From UHGV virus genome UHGV-1794905: DNA of 16,627 nt; one strand, written 5' to 3'. This DNA is from a virus. The notes under the pieces were generated by a model. The model did not search any database. It was not told where the DNA came from and saw nothing but the letters and a program-made list of their open reading frames with translations. Of this stretch, positions 8,607 through 16,569 are shown piece by piece (positions within the stretch are counted from its first letter, which is position 1; each line of letters opens with the position of its first letter). The position numbers and the translations under genes are program-made.

Positions 8607-8882
8607 TTACTCAATAAAGATCATTGGCTTACCGTTAAAGCGTTCATGCCGTGTGACCGTCCATTGTTGTCCGTCATAAACAACGCGATCCCCGCGCCGT
8701 GGGCGGTATCCCGAAGAAAACACCACCAGAGAGACCGCAGGTCCGGACAGAGCATTCAGCTCTGCCAGTGTTTCTCCCGGGATCACTGTCATATCGACAT
8801 CATTAATCGAGGCTGTCTTTCCCATCTTTCTGACCGTGATCGCATCCATACGCGCTGCCAGCCGGGAAAAGGGATCAGACAT
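8607..8882 (-). CDS. Head-tail connector (head completion) protein, FII-like
   Basis: 91 aa in the position of lambda FII, between the head genes and Z. Weak similarity to gpFII: RRGDRVVYDGQQWTVTRH versus RRGDTLTIGEENFWVDRV. Start overlaps the upstream gene's stop by 8 nt. Confidence 0.55.
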   Translation of the reverse strand: MSDPFSRLAARMDAITVRKMGKTASINDVDMTVIPGETLAELNALSGPAVSLVVFSSGYRPRRGDRVVYDGQQWTVTRHERFNGKPMIFIE

Positions 8883-9198
8883 TGAGTTTTACCGGCACTT
8901 CTTCTGCACTGGTTCCGGCATCTGCCCAGACAACCCCGACCAGCGGATCAGAGCCGCTGTTCGTCAGCTGAACTTTTCCGGATTTCAGATAAACCTTCTT
9001 ACCGGTTTTCATATCATCCGTTTTCAGTTTCGGCAGCATAAATACACCTTCAGTCATACCGTCCCCAATTTCGCCTTTTGCAATATCGGTCAGTGCCACA
9101 GCAAAAATATCGCCCACCTGTACCAGCTCTCCGCTACTGATATTTGCACCAGCGACAATCTCCACCGTTTTCCCGTCTTCCACAAAATTCTTTGCCAT
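8875..9198 (-). CDS. Small head-associated protein, possible capsid decoration/cement protein (DUF2190-like)
   Basis: 107 aa from ATG 9198 (GGAGACAGTT upstream); Gly/Val-rich beta-type sequence directly downstream of the capsid gene. Not lambda gpD-like. Family assignment is from memory only. Confidence 0.5.
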   Translation of the reverse strand: MAKNFVEDGKTVEIVAGANISSGELVQVGDIFAVALTDIAKGEIGDGMTEGVFMLPKLKTDDMKTGKKVYLKSGKVQLTNSGSDPLVGVVWADAGTSAEEVPVKLNV

Positions 9199-9284: not shown

Positions 9285-11348
9285 TTACGCCGTACATTTC
9301 ACCAGACCGCGGTGATCAACTGGCGCGACACCAGCGTCAATACGCACTTTCGTTGTCACGCCGTCCACGCTGAAGCCCTCCATCTGATCAATATATGGCG
9401 TATCCACACCGTTGAGATAAGCCACTTCGATGGTATCCGTACCTTTCGCCGCAGCCAGATAAAAGGTGGTCTGGCTGTTATCATCAAGACGAGGCTCTGC
9501 AATAACGGTCGCAAAATCTTTCACCGGGTTAATAATACCGGCGTTAATGTCAGCCCCCTTGACACTTGAGGAGCGAATGACCTGGTTAGCAACAGACTCC
9601 ATCGCTGTCGGTACCAGTACGAACGCAGGACGAATATTCAGATGACGCTCCCCCTCTTTCTGAACGCGCATCAACTGGCGAGCTTTATCCAGTGATGCCA
9701 CGTCCATTGCAGCGTTCTCCAGTACGTTTGCATGTTTCGTTTTATCGAACAGGTTCACATTATCCGTGGAGATCTTCGGATTAGACGTCAGAATGGCATA
9801 AACCAGATCGGCAATCGTGGATTTTGCCGCACGCCCCAGTTTCATCGGAACATCGGTCAGCATATTCAGATCATCGTTGATAATGGCCTGACGGGTGATG
9901 CTGAACAGTTCACCATAAGTCGCCAGTGCAATCGTGGCCTGTTTATCTCCGGTGGTGACGTACTTATATTCCGCCCCTTCTCGCACCTGACGCAGAGAAC
10001 TGAAGCCCCCCATCCCCACACGATGAGCAATTTTAAAATCAGACAGCTGACCTTTCCGGGTCCACTGTTCGTAAGTCTCAGGGGCTTCTTCCCATCCCTG
10101 CAGAATGGCTTTGTTCGCGACATCCAGCAGAATATTACCAAAATCAGACGTACTGTGCGTGAACGCTGCCCCGACCATCTGCATTGGGTTATACCCGGAA
10201 ACCCCAATCCCCCGTTCTGTCAGTGACATTCGGGCATATTCACGCAGGGTCATCCCGTTATAGACGTTATCCTGTTCACGCTCAGCAAATCCGGCACGCG
10301 CCATCAGCGCCTGACGGATCCCGTCCCCCACAAAATTACCGTTGCCAGCATAAATATGGGCCGGGGTATTTTTATTTGATGGTGAAAATTCCTTACCCAT
10401 TTCGTTAAGTAATTTCTCACGGGCCTGCTCAAGCGAGCACTCCGGATCGGAAAGACAACTGGCCTGCAATGTCTGATAGCGCCCGCCAAACATACCAAAC
10501 AGTTCATTAATACCACTCACACGTGCTTTTTGCTCTGCCAGTACCTGCGCACGGATACTGCTTTCATCTGCGGAAGGTGCATTTGTGGTAGTCGCGGTTG
10601 TGGCAACCGGAGCCGTAGTAGTCTTATCCTGTGTCTGAGATGCAGTATTTTTGTTTTCAGGTTCACGCGTTGCACTGTTGCGTGGCGGAATAATCATATT
10701 TCGAATGGATTCCGGCATTTTTTTAAATTCCTCTGTACGTTTTGACTGAATACATGCCATTGCCTTAACTTCCGGTGTCACCTGGTCAGCAAATCCGTGT
10801 GCCAGACATTCGGCACCGGACATCCAGGTTTCATCCGCCAGCATGGCAGCAATTTCATCGGTGGTTTTCCCGGTTTTCTGCGCATAAGCAGGCAACAGGA
10901 CCGACTCAACTTTATCAAGCAGGTCAGCATAATCACGCATATCATCCGCATCGCCACCACTCACTCCCCATGGTTTATGGATCATCATGAATGCGTTTTC
11001 CGGCATGATGACGGGATCACCCACCATTGCAATGACCGATGCCATGGATGCCGCGACACCATCCACATAAACAGTGATGGACGCCCCATGATTTTTCAGC
11101 GCATTAAAAATGGCGATGCCTTCAAAGACATCGCCACCCGGTGAATTGATATGGAGATTAATGTGGGTGATATTACCCAGCGCATTCAGATCGCTGACAA
11201 ACTGCTTCGCCGTAACTCCCCAGAAACCAATCTCGTCATAGATATAAATATCTGCGTCACTTTTATGACCCGCCTTCATTCTGAACCAGGAATTATTCTT
11301 CAGGCTGGCCTTCGGTTCGCCGCGAAACCACGCGTTCTGTTTCAGCAT
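9285..11348 (-). CDS. Prohead protease (ClpP-like, S14) fused to HK97-fold major capsid protein, 687 aa
   Basis: N-terminal region carries ClpP signature motifs (…GVAASMASVIAMVGD… catalytic Ser; …MMIHKPWGVSGG… catalytic His). A T/A/P-rich low-complexity linker (TASQTQDKTTTAPVATTATTTNAPSADESS) follows, then about 380 aa of capsid-like sequence. Start at ATG 11348 with AAGGAGGTGGTA; the ORF-track start at 11540 is read-through of the portal 3' end. Confidence 0.8.
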   Translation of the reverse strand: MLKQNAWFRGEPKASLKNNSWFRMKAGHKSDADIYIYDEIGFWGVTAKQFVSDLNALGNITHINLHINSPGGDVFEGIAIFNALKNHGASITVYVDGVAASMASVIAMVGDPVIMPENAFMMIHKPWGVSGGDADDMRDYADLLDKVESVLLPAYAQKTGKTTDEIAAMLADETWMSGAECLAHGFADQVTPEVKAMACIQSKRTEEFKKMPESIRNMIIPPRNSATREPENKNTASQTQDKTTTAPVATTATTTNAPSADESSIRAQVLAEQKARVSGINELFGMFGGRYQTLQASCLSDPECSLEQAREKLLNEMGKEFSPSNKNTPAHIYAGNGNFVGDGIRQALMARAGFAEREQDNVYNGMTLREYARMSLTERGIGVSGYNPMQMVGAAFTHSTSDFGNILLDVANKAILQGWEEAPETYEQWTRKGQLSDFKIAHRVGMGGFSSLRQVREGAEYKYVTTGDKQATIALATYGELFSITRQAIINDDLNMLTDVPMKLGRAAKSTIADLVYAILTSNPKISTDNVNLFDKTKHANVLENAAMDVASLDKARQLMRVQKEGERHLNIRPAFVLVPTAMESVANQVIRSSSVKGADINAGIINPVKDFATVIAEPRLDDNSQTTFYLAAAKGTDTIEVAYLNGVDTPYIDQMEGFSVDGVTTKVRIDAGVAPVDHRGLVKCTA

Positions 11349-12798
11349 TACCACCTCCTTTATCGCAGGCCGGATCGGTATCAAACACCAGATCCAGCCT
11401 GCGGTTTTCATCAATTTCGGCCTTGCGCCGACGTTTAACATCATCCGGATTACGACCACTGGCGCGCACCCAGTCTGATTCTGTTGCCGCACCACCACGA
11501 ATCTGGATTTTCCAGGCTTCAGCTTCCTTGACAGGATCAATCCACGGCATGACCGGACCAGAATATGTTGCGTTATATAATGTTTTTATATCCACATCCG
11601 ACGGAATTTTCAGCACCCCCGCGGCAACCACCATATTCAGCCATGCCCGGTACACCGGACGGGTTACAGCACCAATAAAACAGTCCTGCAGGATCAGATA
11701 GCCATCGGTGGACTCAACCAGCTCCTGTCGCTGGGAACTGTAGGTACCGTTATAGTTACGTGCTGCACTGGAAAAACTCAGACGAGTGCCCGCCGCCATG
11801 GCCCGCAACTGACCATTACGAAAAGTTTCCAGATTAGGGTTAGGCCGATCAGATTTGACCATGCCAATATCTTCCCCCTTACGCAGATCGTCATAAATAA
11901 TGCCGGGAGTGATATGCAGTTCCCGATCATTATCTTTATTCGTCACAGGTTCCTCATAATCCTGCCCGTCTCCTTTACGAATATACAGCCCCAGTGCCGC
12001 AGCAATGCGCGCCGCTACCAGCTCAGCATCTTCATATTCCTTAAGCGCACTGATCCGTATCAGCACACCTGACAACATGGATGTGCCACGCGTCTGATGA
12101 AGGCGGCGGGTAAACTTCAGATGCACCATATTTTCAGCGGCGATCTCTTTGGTTTCACTCTGTCGCCCGGTAACCGGATAATTTTTATAAACCAGGTATT
12201 TTTTCGGCCTGCCCCATTCATCCAGAAAAACCCCCTGATTCATTCCCGCAGACTCATCACTGAGCATGGGCACAAAATCCGGCTCCATTGCCTCGAGCCA
12301 GAAAGGCACACCGGCAGTCCGCGCCAGCCCGGCACCTGCGCCTCTGACCATCTGGGCAAACACTTCTCCATCACGTAACCAGGTACGCAACAGCAGACGT
12401 TCGAGCATGGGGCGCGTATGCTGCCCGGTCACATCCGGACTGACAGACCATTCCGCCCACAAACGACGGATAATAATTGCCAGCTCTGTAGCCATATCAC
12501 CATTTTTCAGTAATGGTTGTGGTTCAACAATGATCCCCTTTGCACCAATCACCCGCTCCTCAAGTTTGTCGAAAACACCGATTACCAGGTCATGATTAAT
12601 GTCCAGAAAACGGGCCTGTTCCCGCAGGGAAACCGCCCCGTACTTACTGAGCTGGTCGGCAGAACGGTTTTCCCGTCGAGCTTTGTGTGTGCGGGTGGGT
12701 TTCACGGCCTCATAAGCGCGGATTAACGCTCTTGATCGCAACCTCGCAGCTTTCCAGCCGGGAGAAAAAACACCAATCACATCATCAAGAATTGCCAT
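11293..12798 (-). CDS. Portal protein
   Basis: 501-aa ORF between the W-like gene and the protease/capsid gene, with an acidic C-terminus. The ATG shares a base with the W stop. Not similar to lambda gpB by recall. Call rests on size and position. Confidence 0.8.
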   Translation of the reverse strand: MAILDDVIGVFSPGWKAARLRSRALIRAYEAVKPTRTHKARRENRSADQLSKYGAVSLREQARFLDINHDLVIGVFDKLEERVIGAKGIIVEPQPLLKNGDMATELAIIIRRLWAEWSVSPDVTGQHTRPMLERLLLRTWLRDGEVFAQMVRGAGAGLARTAGVPFWLEAMEPDFVPMLSDESAGMNQGVFLDEWGRPKKYLVYKNYPVTGRQSETKEIAAENMVHLKFTRRLHQTRGTSMLSGVLIRISALKEYEDAELVAARIAAALGLYIRKGDGQDYEEPVTNKDNDRELHITPGIIYDDLRKGEDIGMVKSDRPNPNLETFRNGQLRAMAAGTRLSFSSAARNYNGTYSSQRQELVESTDGYLILQDCFIGAVTRPVYRAWLNMVVAAGVLKIPSDVDIKTLYNATYSGPVMPWIDPVKEAEAWKIQIRGGAATESDWVRASGRNPDDVKRRRKAEIDENRRLDLVFDTDPACDKGGGNAETERVVSRRTEGQPEE

Positions 12799-13010
12799 CA
12801 GAACCTCGCCAGTTTATACCCTGGATTTCCCCGTCGCCGCGCGGTCAGAGCTACAAGGCGGCGCTCCCACTCCTGCCGCCCCTGCCGGATCTCAGATAAA
12901 TTTTCCATGGTCATCTGCTGACCATTAAAGGTGACGGATTTTCCGTCCAGCACAGCCATTTCCGCATCAATATAACGCTGGATCATGGCTTCAATATCAT
13001 TCTGATTCAT
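12798..13010 (-). CDS. W: Head-tail joining protein, gpW-like
   Basis: 70 aa from ATG 13010 (ATGA coupling with the terminase stop; GGAGG 6 nt upstream). Size and position between terminase and portal match lambda W. Confidence 0.7.
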   Translation of the reverse strand: MNQNDIEAMIQRYIDAEMAVLDGKSVTFNGQQMTMENLSEIRQGRQEWERRLVALTARRRGNPGYKLARF

Positions 13011-15106
13011 AACCATCCTCCGGATGTCACCCAGGGGTTATCCTCATCGGGTGCCATTTTTTTTCGTTTCTTTTTTCTGGCCGGGGGACGTTCCGGCTCC
13101 GGCAGAACAGGTGGCTCCGCGTTGTCACTGACACACTCCAGCCAGGTTTCCCGGTACGCCCACTCCGGCGCATCAGGCCACTGAATTTTCTCGTACCCAT
13201 GCAGAATGACCAGCGCCTCGGCATACACCATCAGGTCAAAGGCTTCGTTCGCACCGCGCCCCGGCTTACTCCATTTCCCGTCACTGCTCCGCTCTTCATA
13301 CGTCAGTTCGTCGTAAAACCAACTCCCCAGCCAGTCGGGAAAATGCACATAGCCAGGACCGGGAGAATCACGCCATAACGCGTTATTCACCCGGTCTTTC
13401 AGAACGTCAGTCTGAAGAAGCCAGAGAGGCACATCACCCGCAGCCTGCGCCCGTCGCCCCGTTCGTCCGGTGTTATCCGGAAATGTACGGGTTATCAGTT
13501 TTGCACGTCGGATACTGTCGCCCTTAAACAGGTAAATACGCTTGCCAAGACCATCAAGACGGCAACGACGCCAGAATTTATAGGCATTATCGGTAACCCC
13601 GTCTTCACCGCCGGAGTCCACCGCCATTGCCATTACCCGCATGCGCTGAGAAGAGTCAGAAACCAGCGGCCAGCCTTTATGAAAAACATCCGTCAGCAGA
13701 ACATCCCAGTCTTCCGGATAACCGGCGGGATCAATACGCAGGCTTTCTCCGTTATTGTCACAACGCAGCGACTGCGTGATGTTGTAACGATCAACTATCC
13801 AGCGCTCGCCGCGACTACCATAGCCCGTTACCTGAACCACAAAACGGCGATGGCGTCCCGCCTGCACATCCACTGTCGCTACAAGGAAATTTACGCCATC
13901 CGGCACACTGCGGGGAGGAACTGGCTCTGCACGTTGCTCAAGCAGTTCGCTTTTTCGTTGCTCCATGCTGGCGCGGGGAAGATAAGGTAACCCCCAGTCA
14001 GTATTGATAACCGCCTTGAGAGTTTCTTCGCTTCCGGTTGCCTCGTATTCCTGTTCAGCGGTCAACAACTTATAAATCAGTTGCGCCCAGGTCTGATAAG
14101 CGGCAGCGGGTCCCTCCATCCAGAAGCTGGCTATCCTTGATTGACGTGGCATTCCGGTAACATTCCCTTCCATGTCAATCTGCTCACCATCCCGTAACCA
14201 GACCCCGCGCCCGTTCAACTCACGTTTCATGTCTGCGGTGATTCTGGAGCCACAATGAGGACATAATATATGGGCCGCTTTACTGGCTTTTACAGGATCG
14301 GGATTGTCACGGTACCCCGTCATGGCCTCCATGGAGGGTTGAAAATACCCCCCGCAATCCGGACAGGGCCAGTACCAGCGACGACGATCACCACGGTTAT
14401 AAAGTGACAGGATCCCCGTGGTGGGTGGAGCTTCATGTGGAGAGGTTTTTCGCCACTTACTGTCCGAAATTTCGCGTCCAGGTGAACTCTCCACAAGAGT
14501 CATACCTGCTGACATAAACGTCGTGGTACGTTTTGAAGCCAGGGAGAAACCATCACCTTCACCATCAATATCATCAGGCCAGCGGTCATAATCTGTTAAG
14601 GCAACAAATCTATAATCAGATGACGACATAATATTGACTGAGGGCCAACCAATCTTTAGATAATTACCCGCCTTAAAAGTCTTATCATGAACGTTGTTAT
14701 CATTGGTTCGTGGACTCATTCGCCGTGCGACTTCTTTACTGACCCGAAATGTGCGATCAAGACGTTTTCTGGAATGCTCTCTTGCTTTCTCTTCTGTCAT
14801 TTGAATTAACAAAAAATCTGCAGGCTCACAAACCACGCTGTATACAATCCAGCCATCAATTAACCCAACCGTTTTTCCTGTTCGTGCTGGCCCGACAAAA
14901 ACAACCGCATCATAGTCACGGGAAGACAAGCAATTCATTGGCTCAATGATATAAGGCGTCAAAGATGCATCCCATGGCAATGAACTTCCCCCGCCCAGTG
15001 GTACTCGCATATATTTCTCAACCGCTTCTGCCACTGGCATTCTTGTGGGGGGTTTTAGCAATTCGGAAACATCACGCCTGATAGCACTTGCTGAGGCAAA
15101 AACCAT
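13007..15106 (-). CDS. Terminase large subunit (lambda gpA family), 699 aa
   Basis: Walker A-like VFVGPARTGKT near the N-terminus; Cys-rich WYWPCPDCGG...HILCPHCG segment; ATG overlaps the small-subunit stop (TAATG). C-terminus is basic (ARKKKRKK). Confidence 0.88.
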   Translation of the reverse strand: MVFASASAIRRDVSELLKPPTRMPVAEAVEKYMRVPLGGGSSLPWDASLTPYIIEPMNCLSSRDYDAVVFVGPARTGKTVGLIDGWIVYSVVCEPADFLLIQMTEEKAREHSRKRLDRTFRVSKEVARRMSPRTNDNNVHDKTFKAGNYLKIGWPSVNIMSSSDYRFVALTDYDRWPDDIDGEGDGFSLASKRTTTFMSAGMTLVESSPGREISDSKWRKTSPHEAPPTTGILSLYNRGDRRRWYWPCPDCGGYFQPSMEAMTGYRDNPDPVKASKAAHILCPHCGSRITADMKRELNGRGVWLRDGEQIDMEGNVTGMPRQSRIASFWMEGPAAAYQTWAQLIYKLLTAEQEYEATGSEETLKAVINTDWGLPYLPRASMEQRKSELLEQRAEPVPPRSVPDGVNFLVATVDVQAGRHRRFVVQVTGYGSRGERWIVDRYNITQSLRCDNNGESLRIDPAGYPEDWDVLLTDVFHKGWPLVSDSSQRMRVMAMAVDSGGEDGVTDNAYKFWRRCRLDGLGKRIYLFKGDSIRRAKLITRTFPDNTGRTGRRAQAAGDVPLWLLQTDVLKDRVNNALWRDSPGPGYVHFPDWLGSWFYDELTYEERSSDGKWSKPGRGANEAFDLMVYAEALVILHGYEKIQWPDAPEWAYRETWLECVSDNAEPPVLPEPERPPARKKKRKKMAPDEDNPWVTSGGWL

Positions 15107-15606
15107 TATTCCTCCTCATCATCTCTTTCTCTCATTTCAGTTGATAATGCCTCACGGATATCATCAACTGCTCGTTGAGCCTCAGCGATTTGTGATGCAT
15201 TCCAGCCCCGATCTCGCTCCAGTTTGTCAGGCCACGTATCCAGTACCTGAGTAACAACCTTCAACATCAACGCCATTTCGCGATGCACGTCACTGGCAGG
15301 AACAAGTTGTTTTAATGTTGTTTCCATCTTGATACGTTCGTTTTCTGACTGGAACCAGTCTTTACGCTCTTTCGGTTCCATTCGTGACGGATCATGTATA
15401 TCGGAATCAATGACTGATTTACTCTCAAACAAAGCAGGTCCGACATCTCTCAATGCATAAACAGGATTACCACGAACGGTGCCGGCAACAGGGATATTGG
15501 CCTCCAGCAGTCTTTTTTTAACCACCTTTCTGTCCATAGCAAAGGCTTCTGCGATTTTCGCGATACTCCAGCGATAAACGTCTCCGATATTACTGATATT
15601 CGACAT
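15106..15606 (-). CDS. Terminase small subunit (Nu1-like DNA-recognition subunit)
   Basis: 166 aa from ATG 15606 (GAGGTGGGG upstream); N-terminal helix-turn-helix-like segment (DVYRWSIAKIAEAFAMDRKVVKKRL), acidic C-terminus, immediately upstream of and coupled to the large subunit. The ORF-track start at 15612 is a GTG. Confidence 0.8.
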   Translation of the reverse strand: MSNISNIGDVYRWSIAKIAEAFAMDRKVVKKRLLEANIPVAGTVRGNPVYALRDVGPALFESKSVIDSDIHDPSRMEPKERKDWFQSENERIKMETTLKQLVPASDVHREMALMLKVVTQVLDTWPDKLERDRGWNASQIAEAQRAVDDIREALSTEMRERDDEEE

Positions 15607-15789
15607 CCCCACCTCTTCACACCAGCTCGAATATCATTTTTCTTTTTAAAAACAGAATATTAAAAACTGGTCAGATGTCCCACAAAAAGCAAAATTGGAC
15701 AGGTGAAAATCAATTTTTATTTTACTTTTCAACATGTTAATTGATGTGGTGGTGTCCCATGAAAATTCAAAAACTAGCCGTTTTCCGCG

Positions 15790-15801
15790 CCGCTCCCGCC
15801 C
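15790..15801 (-). other. Candidate cosN cohesive-end site
   Basis: Minus strand reads ACG-GGGCGGGAGCGG-CGCGGAAAACGGCTAGTTTTTGAATTTTC, which aligns with my recollection of the lambda cos region (ACG-GGGCGGCGACCT-CGCGGGTTTTCGCTATTTATGAAAATTTTC). It is a GC island in an AT-rich gap about 185 nt upstream of the small terminase start. Confidence 0.5.
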
Positions 15802-15915
15802 CGTGGCAAGGGTACCCCACCGGGAGGACCCGCAAAATGAGAGCGATTATCATTTGTACACACTCTAACACCTGCATTATCGCAGCTCCTCGCTGAAGGG
15901 CTGCTGTAATGCATG

Positions 15916-16215
15916 TTACTCAGTAACAACTGCGCCTTCCGGTAATTCCATACCGGCAAATACCGGACAACCAGGATGACGATCATCTTCTGTTGCTTCC
16001 AGCATTGACTCACCAAACCACTCCGTCGTGGCGCGACCATCAGCAGCTTTGTAGTGGAGTAAGTACTGGTTTTCGCCATCCGCATACTGCGCGCGGGCTT
16101 TAACCTCACCCCATTCATCACTGATGCGCATCTCCACCAGTTGAGACAACTCAAACTTAAACGGGACAGCAGCGGCACCAATTACAATCGGTTTGTTTTC
16201 TGTTGTTTCCATCAT
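15916..16215 (-). CDS. Hypothetical acidic protein, 99 aa
   Basis: ATGATG at 16215 with AGGAG 5 nt upstream; MMETTENKPIVIGAAAVPFKFELSQL..., no transmembrane segment, acidic. Lies on the operon strand upstream of cos. No family recognised. Confidence 0.55.
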   Translation of the reverse strand: MMETTENKPIVIGAAAVPFKFELSQLVEMRISDEWGEVKARAQYADGENQYLLHYKAADGRATTEWFGESMLEATEDDRHPGCPVFAGMELPEGAVVTE

Positions 16216-16386
16216 CGTCTCCTGATATCGAAGCCCGTCGCCGCACCGGGCACTGATCAACATTTGAGTATTCGCGGCGACAGAAAGAATTTATTTTATT
16301 GAGTAGCCACAAACACAGAATTTCATGCTTTCCGGACGCTGACTCATCCTTCATTTTTCAGCAAAATATTCTGCTCTTATAGGCGA

Positions 16387-16569
16387 TCAGTTCTGCAGAC
16401 ACTGCCGAACACCGTCGACAATTTCACAGACCTGAGAAGCTGTATCGAAAAGCTGGCGCGCCTTATCCAGACTGACGCATCCCACCAGAAAAAAAGGCAC
16501 CAGTATCGCTACCAGTGCCCATTTCGCCGCCGTTCGCGGCATTCTGTGCGTCCAGTGTTTTCTGCTCAT
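16387..16569 (-). CDS. Small predicted lipoprotein, 60 aa
   Basis: Signal peptide plus lipobox (AAKWALVAILVPFFLVGC); predicted mature peptide about 30 aa with three Cys. AGGTG 6 nt upstream of the ATG. The same frame stays open to the window edge, so a longer product cannot be excluded. Confidence 0.5.
   Translation of the reverse strand: MSRKHWTHRMPRTAAKWALVAILVPFFLVGCVSLDKARQLFDTASQVCEIVDGVRQCLQN

Follow-up and report, generated by a model that had tools for sequence, protein, structure and literature searches.

The question raised by this locus is whether a phage head protease and a major capsid protein are genuinely encoded as one polypeptide, or whether two neighboring genes have been joined by error. 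The locus lies in a window of 16,627 nucleotides, the whole stretch of DNA analyzed from the UHGV virus genome UHGV-1794905, on which all positions are counted; here, a preliminary description had recognized a single open reading frame (ORF) of 687 amino acids at 9285-11348, consisting of an N-terminal ClpP-type protease, a low-complexity linker, and a C-terminal capsid domain of the HK97 fold. Its coordinates and length are correct; the strand, left unstated there, is the minus strand, and the plus-strand translation of the same span is full of stops. With high confidence, it can be identified as the head-shell gene from a lambdoid prophage of the Gifsy-2/mEp460 type, in which protease, flexible linker, helical scaffold-like segment, and HK97-fold capsid protein follow one another in one chain (Table 1). 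It is an intact member of a known and widespread family, and its architecture was already known; since Gifsy-2-type fusions are common in E. coli prophages, the gene is an ordinary one.

One reading frame for protease and capsid protein

The protein matched the NCBIfam model NF045540 (ClpP-like prohead protease/major capsid protein fusion protein) with 994.1 bits against a cutoff of 475, and residues 32-686 aligned with model positions 2-651 of 652. The match to PHROG 133 covered residues 15-687, and Pfam placed a CLP_protease domain at residues 45-191 (1.6e-36) and a Phage_capsid_4 domain at residues 389-684 (2.2e-54). The HK97-fold capsid domain is located C-terminal to the protease in one uninterrupted ORF, the arrangement that defines NF045540. 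Profile searches and PDB sequence matches to ClpP agree with the ClpP-like N-terminal part proposed in the preliminary description; for the HK97-type C-terminal part, the profile searches are joined by a confident structure model of residues 261-687. An ORF of 687 codons with these family matches cannot be a chance ORF.

The minus-strand frame is open from position 11540 to the stop codon at 9285-9287, and the ATG at 11348, which yields the 687 codons, is the credible start; the Shine-Dalgarno (SD) sequence in front of it is the strongest SD match in the gene, as measured by the energy of the duplex with the anti-SD sequence (-12.9 kcal/mol). The portal gene, read in a different frame, shares its last 56 nucleotides with the beginning of the fusion gene.

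That a sequencing or assembly artefact, or a recent frameshift, has joined separate protease and capsid genes is reasonable a priori only, in that many phages keep a ClpP-like protease and the capsid protein separate; this group includes two Firmicutes loci, where a ClpP-like protease of 246-249 amino acids is followed by a separate capsid gene. The conservation of the single frame reduces the chance of such an event almost to nothing. Among 5426 complete E. coli genomes, 2074 contained a match, all under the NCBIfam name and the best of them 98.5% identical at the DNA level; in 1818 genomes the match extended over at least 80% of the gene, in the same uninterrupted frame. The full-length gene was also found in 74 phage records, including mEp460, cdtI, Tritos, Ayreon, several Stx-converting phages, VT1-Sakai (with IS629 inserted in the gene), mEp213, mEp043, LLS, and Fels-1, as well as the Pseudomonas phages F10, MD8, and JBD68. 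Species-representative genomes yielded 17 loci, and in 15 of these one open frame ran across the match; the 15 loci represent nine genera at 36-89% identity, from Escherichia, Edwardsiella, Pantoea, Psychromonas, Pseudomonas, and Spongiibacter to Luteimonas (36%). The persistence of the single frame in these 15 loci, even at 36% identity, rules out a frameshift artefact; moreover, NCBIfam has a curated model for the fusion itself, and differences in the in-frame linker amount to whole codons.

A scan of viral contigs with the close-relative alignment recovered only loci at 89-99% identity, without added diversity. The capsid domain alone matched 10,592 cluster representatives at E<=1e-3; the closest 150 of these comprised 83 with a ClpP-type N-terminus, 31 resembling a sister family (NF045541), and 36 with neither, so that 114 of the 150 carry an N-terminal protease domain and the fusion is the usual state in this capsid clade.

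The fusion frame also remains open 5' of its ATG, over 64 codons in the window and about 24-260 codons at the other loci inspected, and this makes longer ORFs possible: about a dozen database proteins of 1135-1159 amino acids combine portal, protease, and capsid protein in one ORF. Their interpretation as a four-part fusion was rejected. The frame is shifted by one base at no fewer than five distinct positions toward the end of the portal gene; the portal joins therefore read as sporadic events and not as a conserved form, and they are most likely sporadic mutations or sequencing errors in prophages. At two loci (L002 and L003, 4441-4470), a change from CCGCAA to CCCAA two codons into the fusion gene extends the ORF into the portal.

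Domains of the head protein

The N-terminal domain is best described as having the fold and motifs of ClpP without being a ClpP orthologue. It passed the NCBIfam model NF045542 ("head maturation protease, ClpP-related") with 224 bits against a cutoff of 120; solved ClpP structures matched residues 56-196 in a PDB sequence search (down to 4.8e-17), and the AASM and MIHKP motifs of the preliminary description were found at residues 99-102 and 122-126. Ser101 and His124, within these motifs, align with the catalytic serine and histidine of ClpP. Models for true ClpP were matched far below their cutoffs (TIGR00493, 58.9 bits vs. 308.6; all other ClpP models likewise), and the SppA/S49 match reached 22.7 bits against a cutoff of 155; the Pfam, PHROG, and NCBIfam searches gave no match of the fusion protein to the S78 or Phage_capsid families.

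The low scores against true ClpP, and the presence of a glutamate (Glu173) instead of an aspartate at the ClpP aspartate position, would be compatible with a catalytically dead domain that serves as a structural or scaffolding module, with maturation cleavage either absent or performed by another enzyme. We consider a dead module very unlikely: Ser101 and His124 are placed within canonical motifs and, together with Asp172 and Glu173, are invariant in 26 close relatives; the curated model for ClpP-related head-maturation proteases is passed; and the region from the terminase to the tail genes contains no second protease gene. None of the observations contradicts the identification of the head protein. 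As a caveat, with Glu173 in the place of the ClpP aspartate and Asp172 adjacent to it, the identity of the third catalytic residue is uncertain; the sequence does not reveal the cleavage sites.

Genes of this kind also contain a reported insertion site. Helper-embedded satellites of the phage-inducible chromosomal island (PICI) type integrate in the late genes of lambdoid prophages at C:CLP_protease:110 (PMC10111431). The window copy is uninterrupted.

The C-terminal domain has the HK97 fold. An AlphaFold2 model of residues 261-687, built from 104 sequences spanning 24-99% identity, reached a predicted local distance difference test (pLDDT) score of 85.5 and matched only HK97-type shells; a prediction for the full 687 residues with the 26 close relatives was unusable (mean pLDDT 36.7), and the ClpP-like assignment of the protease domain is based on sequence. 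Searches of the capsid part against PDB chains gave weak matches to Mu gpT-like capsid proteins (4.5e-5 with the single sequence, 9e-9 with a profile) and no close relative with a solved structure. The capsid span of about 310-687 given in the preliminary description is right in its fold and too early in its start; the fold begins at about residue 338, and residues 261-320 form three separate helices. The loop between them (residues 321-337) is the sole segment of the model with a pLDDT below 50 and differs between the E. coli and Pseudomonas groups. This loop is one candidate for the mature N-terminus; the other lies near residues 385-397, at which the alignments to the Pfam capsid model and to the solved Mu gpT-like capsids start.

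Protease and capsid domains are connected by three segments of different character. The first, the junction peptide (residues 197-220), is near-invariant in the 26 relatives, and 65 of 79 aligned ClpP-type fusions (78 distant representatives and the window protein) retain its F/Y-x-x-x-P core. The second is the linker, whose T/A/P-rich composition had been noted before; T, A, P, S, N, and Q account for up to 83% of its residues, with a peak at 231-260, and among the 26 relatives it is variable in sequence and differs in length by up to about 24 residues. The third is helical (residues 262-285, 292-300, and 306-320 in the AlphaFold2 model, pLDDT 80-91) and carries a motif of R276 and I280, conserved in 66 and 64 of the 79 aligned fusions, respectively. 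Since the linker is variable while the junction peptide and the helical segment on either side are conserved, the linker looks like a tether; it is too variable for the scaffold role once considered for it, and the conserved helical segment is the better scaffold candidate, for which the HK97 delta domain and lambda Nu3 are proposed analogues.

The junction peptide also contains an in-frame methionine, Met211, kept only in the clade at >=50% identity. A scan for SD sequences at all in-frame ATG, GTG, and TTG codons returned, besides the true start, only Met211 (-6.0 kcal/mol), Met548, and Val661; Met211 is preceded by GAGGA ten bases upstream. If translation were also initiated here, a protease-less linker-scaffold-capsid protein of 477 amino acids would result, and a minority of subunits would carry the protease, as in the nested genes C/Nu3 of lambda and UL26/UL26.5 of herpesviruses; such a nested two-product gene is, in our estimate, improbable. 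In its favor, 17 of 18 loci at >=50% identity retain Met211 together with AGGA or GGAG 9-10 nucleotides upstream, and the codon that provides the AG of the SD motif has G as its third base throughout (GAG, CAG, or AAG), whether it encodes E, Q, or K; two stand-alone Firmicutes proteases apparently have T and V at the Met211 position (as read by eye from the translations), and in the family of Vibrio phage 1.055.O an ATG occurs at the same junction with an SD-like motif 6-9 nucleotides upstream, in 17 of 17 loci with differing residues. Yet the pairing at Met211 is weak compared to that at the true start, and the 10-nucleotide spacing is long; the codon-bias estimate of about 0.004 is post hoc, draws on about nine lineages, and fails correction for the number of sites examined; and the Met211 peptide is conserved as protein, which alone preserves the nucleotides. 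Among the distant ClpP-type fusions that keep the adjacent proline, methionine is found in only 5 of 65, most having A, V, P, or I, and an internal start at this junction is therefore not general to the family. An internal start at Met211 is possible, with weak and inconsistent support; that a conserved start there sets the protease-to-capsid ratio, in the manner of a Nu3-like gene nested inside the capsid gene, is doubtful.

The SD-plus-ATG signature is clearer in the sister family of marine fusions related to Vibrio phage 1.055.O (loci L001 and L023-L040) than in the window gene. There, the junction ATG (residue 197 of L001:3134-5152) always follows GAGGT, GAGGA, GGGGA, or GAGGG at a distance of 6-9 nucleotides, and its SD strength ranks first to third among the 16-24 in-frame ATGs of each gene; the corresponding protein column contains M in 63, V in 4, and L in 2 of 71 sequences. 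The junction ATG of the sister family looks like a conserved internal start for a protease-less scaffold-capsid product.

Neighboring genes and proposed head maturation

The fusion gene is embedded in a late operon of lambda type. Upstream are the terminase genes, a small W-like adaptor gene, and a lambda-family portal gene; directly 3' follows a head decoration gene, identified by PHROG 122 ('head decoration', 1.1e-45) and Pfam Phage_cement_2 (3.6e-20), the product of which is 63% identical to a Gifsy-2 protein of 107 amino acids in an alignment that begins at Met16 of the listed ORF. The next gene, of 91 codons, probably replaces lambda FII as the head-tail joining protein; its Pfam family (PF13856) is described as 'ATP-binding sugar transporter from pro-phage', a description that looks misleading in view of the position of the gene, and its PHROG label is minor tail protein. 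The tail genes continue in lambda order, with Z, U, V, and G matching lambda-type Pfam families and T, H, M, L, K, and I matching PHROG tail families. Pfam and PHROG annotation of the window revealed no other protease or capsid gene. The slippery heptamer of lambda G/T, GGGAAAG, has no site at the G/T junction of the window, which has no bearing on the fusion gene. Small minus-strand ORFs beyond the small terminase gene (15774-16569) match PHROGs of unknown function (phrog_1935 and phrog_7528) or have no match; a plus-strand ORF of 129 amino acids opposite the tail genes (313-702) is without a match and is probably not a gene.

Table 1. Coordinates of the head-shell gene, its segments, and the adjacent genes in the window (residue numbers refer to the 687-residue protein).
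Feature	Position	Strand	Basis
Whole gene: fusion of ClpP-like prohead protease, scaffold-like segment, and major capsid protein, 687 amino acids	9285..11348, stop included	-	ORF and translation, NF045540, PHROG 133, Gifsy-2 STM1034.3n
Shine-Dalgarno sequence AAGGAGG, five bases 5' of ATG 11348	11354..11360	-	Sequence; anti-SD duplex -12.9 kcal/mol
ClpP-related head-maturation protease domain, residues 32-190	10779..11255	-	NF045542, Pfam CLP_protease, ClpP structures, invariance
Catalytic codons Ser101; His124	11046-11048; 10977-10979	-	Aligned to ClpP catalytic Ser, His
Conserved junction peptide, residues 197-220 (MACIQSKRTEEFKKMPESIRNMII), with in-frame Met211	10689..10760	-	Near-invariant, 26 relatives
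T/A/P-rich low-complexity linker, residues 221-260	10569..10688	-	Composition; variable among relatives
Three-helix scaffold-like segment, residues 261-320	10389..10568	-	AlphaFold2 helices, conserved motif
Low-confidence variable loop, residues 321-337; candidate region of maturation cleavage	10338..10388	-	pLDDT, variability
HK97-fold major capsid domain, residues 338-687	9288..10337	-	
Small terminase subunit	15106-15612	-	
Large terminase subunit GpA, lambda-type	13007-15106	-	Pfam
Small W-like adaptor	12798-13016	-	
Lambda-family portal, directly 5' of fusion gene	11293..12798	-	Pfam Phage_portal_2, 4.8e-81
Head decoration (cement) protein gene, directly 3' of fusion gene, 107 amino acids from Met16 of listed ORF	8875..9198	-	PHROG 122, Phage_cement_2
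91-amino-acid gene between decoration gene and Z-like gene	8607-8882	-	Pfam 'Gifsy-2' (PF13856)

A head assembly pathway can be proposed for this set of genes. The capsid domains would assemble around the portal into a prohead of triangulation number T=7 with roughly 415 shell subunits, and the N-terminal 320-390 residues of each subunit would face inward; the helical segment would serve as a scaffold inside the shell, much as the delta domain does in HK97. Crowding within the shell would then activate the tethered proteases, which would trim off protease, linker, and scaffold inside the closed shell and leave a mature capsid protein of about 300-350 residues. DNA packaging would lead to shell expansion, and the decoration protein encoded by the next gene would stabilize the shell. 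As the preliminary description had suggested, the protease would thus be delivered into the prohead attached to the capsid subunit before cutting itself free; we infer the inward orientation, self-cleavage, cleavage sites, T number, and role of the decoration protein.

Comparison with known head modules

The guess that similar fusions occur in Gifsy-type prophages was well founded: Gifsy-2 carries an orthologue (STM1034.3n; NC_010393) in which protease, linker, scaffold-like segment, and capsid protein follow one another as in the window protein, and 685 residues align at 68% identity. Protease and linker have diverged between the two proteins, whereas the capsid domain is apparently much more conserved, judging by eye from the pairwise alignment. 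The tripartite gene of Gifsy-2 is likewise flanked by a lambda-family portal gene on one side and a small decoration gene on the other, and the shared gene order consists of small and large terminase, small W-like gene, portal, fusion, decoration, small head-tail gene, Z, U, V, G, T, and H. In the abstract of a structural study of Gifsy-2, a ClpP-like N-terminus is reportedly followed by a middle domain of about 200 residues, to which scaffolding is tentatively ascribed, and then by the capsid protein at the C-terminus; the shells are said to have been modeled with HK97 gp5 and lambda gpD. Later literature states that the prohead protease and coat genes of Gifsy-2 are fused (PMC12315714, citing Effantin et al. 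2010, Virology 402:355) and that this phage has a T=7 capsid and a 45.8-kb genome (PMC8814770).

NF045540 members in prophages and phages of E. coli and Shigella are 72-99% identical to the window protein over its full length and carry the same annotation; the window copy differs from them in its uncommon N-terminus (MLKQNAWF, not MPQRNDRS) and in its long linker variant. In the F10/JBD68 group of Pseudomonas phages, MD8 gp5 is 57% identical and 693 amino acids long; its host and flanking tail genes differ from those of the window. According to its published description, a single gene here encodes protease, scaffold, and capsid protein, and the product was modeled on ClpP and the HK97 prohead (PMC8508860).

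With a curated NCBIfam model, a cryo-electron microscopy study of Gifsy-2, the description of MD8, and copies present in more than one third of the complete E. coli genomes, the window gene adds little to what is known; its practical value lies in annotation. Public phage records label the gene inconsistently, as 'Clp protease', 'head maturation protease', 'head-tail preconnector protein Nu3', 'scaffolding protein', 'major capsid protein', or 'terminase protein'; protease-only or Nu3 labels can mislead annotation pipelines to infer phages without a capsid gene. In one capsid-prediction study, Gifsy-2 was left without an HK97-fold capsid protein (PMC8814770).

The NF045541-type fusions of Vibrio phage 1.055.O and its marine relatives share with the window gene a homologous scaffold-like segment and a Phage_capsid_4 domain, at about 29% identity, and are followed by a Phage_cement_2 gene. 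Their N-terminal domain matched neither ClpP nor any Pfam family; the same capsid module therefore appears to have been joined to a second, apparently unrelated N-terminal domain, taken for a protease in the name of NF045541 ('prohead protease/major capsid protein fusion').

With regard to lambda, the preliminary description had called the tail lambda-like and the head not; this is correct for the tail, but the head module is a mosaic, with a lambda-type terminase (GpA) and a lambda-type portal (Phage_portal_2). The C/Nu3/D/E block alone is replaced, by the fusion gene and the Phage_cement_2 decoration gene. The fusion occupies the place of C/Nu3/D/E in an otherwise lambda-like late operon, and a protease of the ClpP/S49 fold superfamily precedes the scaffold in both phages, together with an HK97-fold coat and a decoration protein. 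In lambda, by contrast, the functions are divided among separate genes, with a protease of the S49 family and with decoration and coat proteins of the gpD and gpE families; the window gene is a single gene of the CLP_protease and Phage_capsid_4 families, accompanied by Phage_cement_2, and does not belong to the separate-gene C/Nu3/D/E type of lambda. A trimeric protein is located at each 3-fold axis of the capsid in lambda and in Gifsy-2, according to PMC8538268.

The window protein is not a member of the HK97 gp4 or gp5 families either. HK97 encodes its protease, of the S78 family, in a separate gene, has a delta domain fused to the N-terminus of its gp5 capsid protein (Phage_capsid family), and does without a decoration protein, using a covalent chainmail instead. 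Its likeness to the window protein lies in the fold and in the principle of a fused scaffold only.

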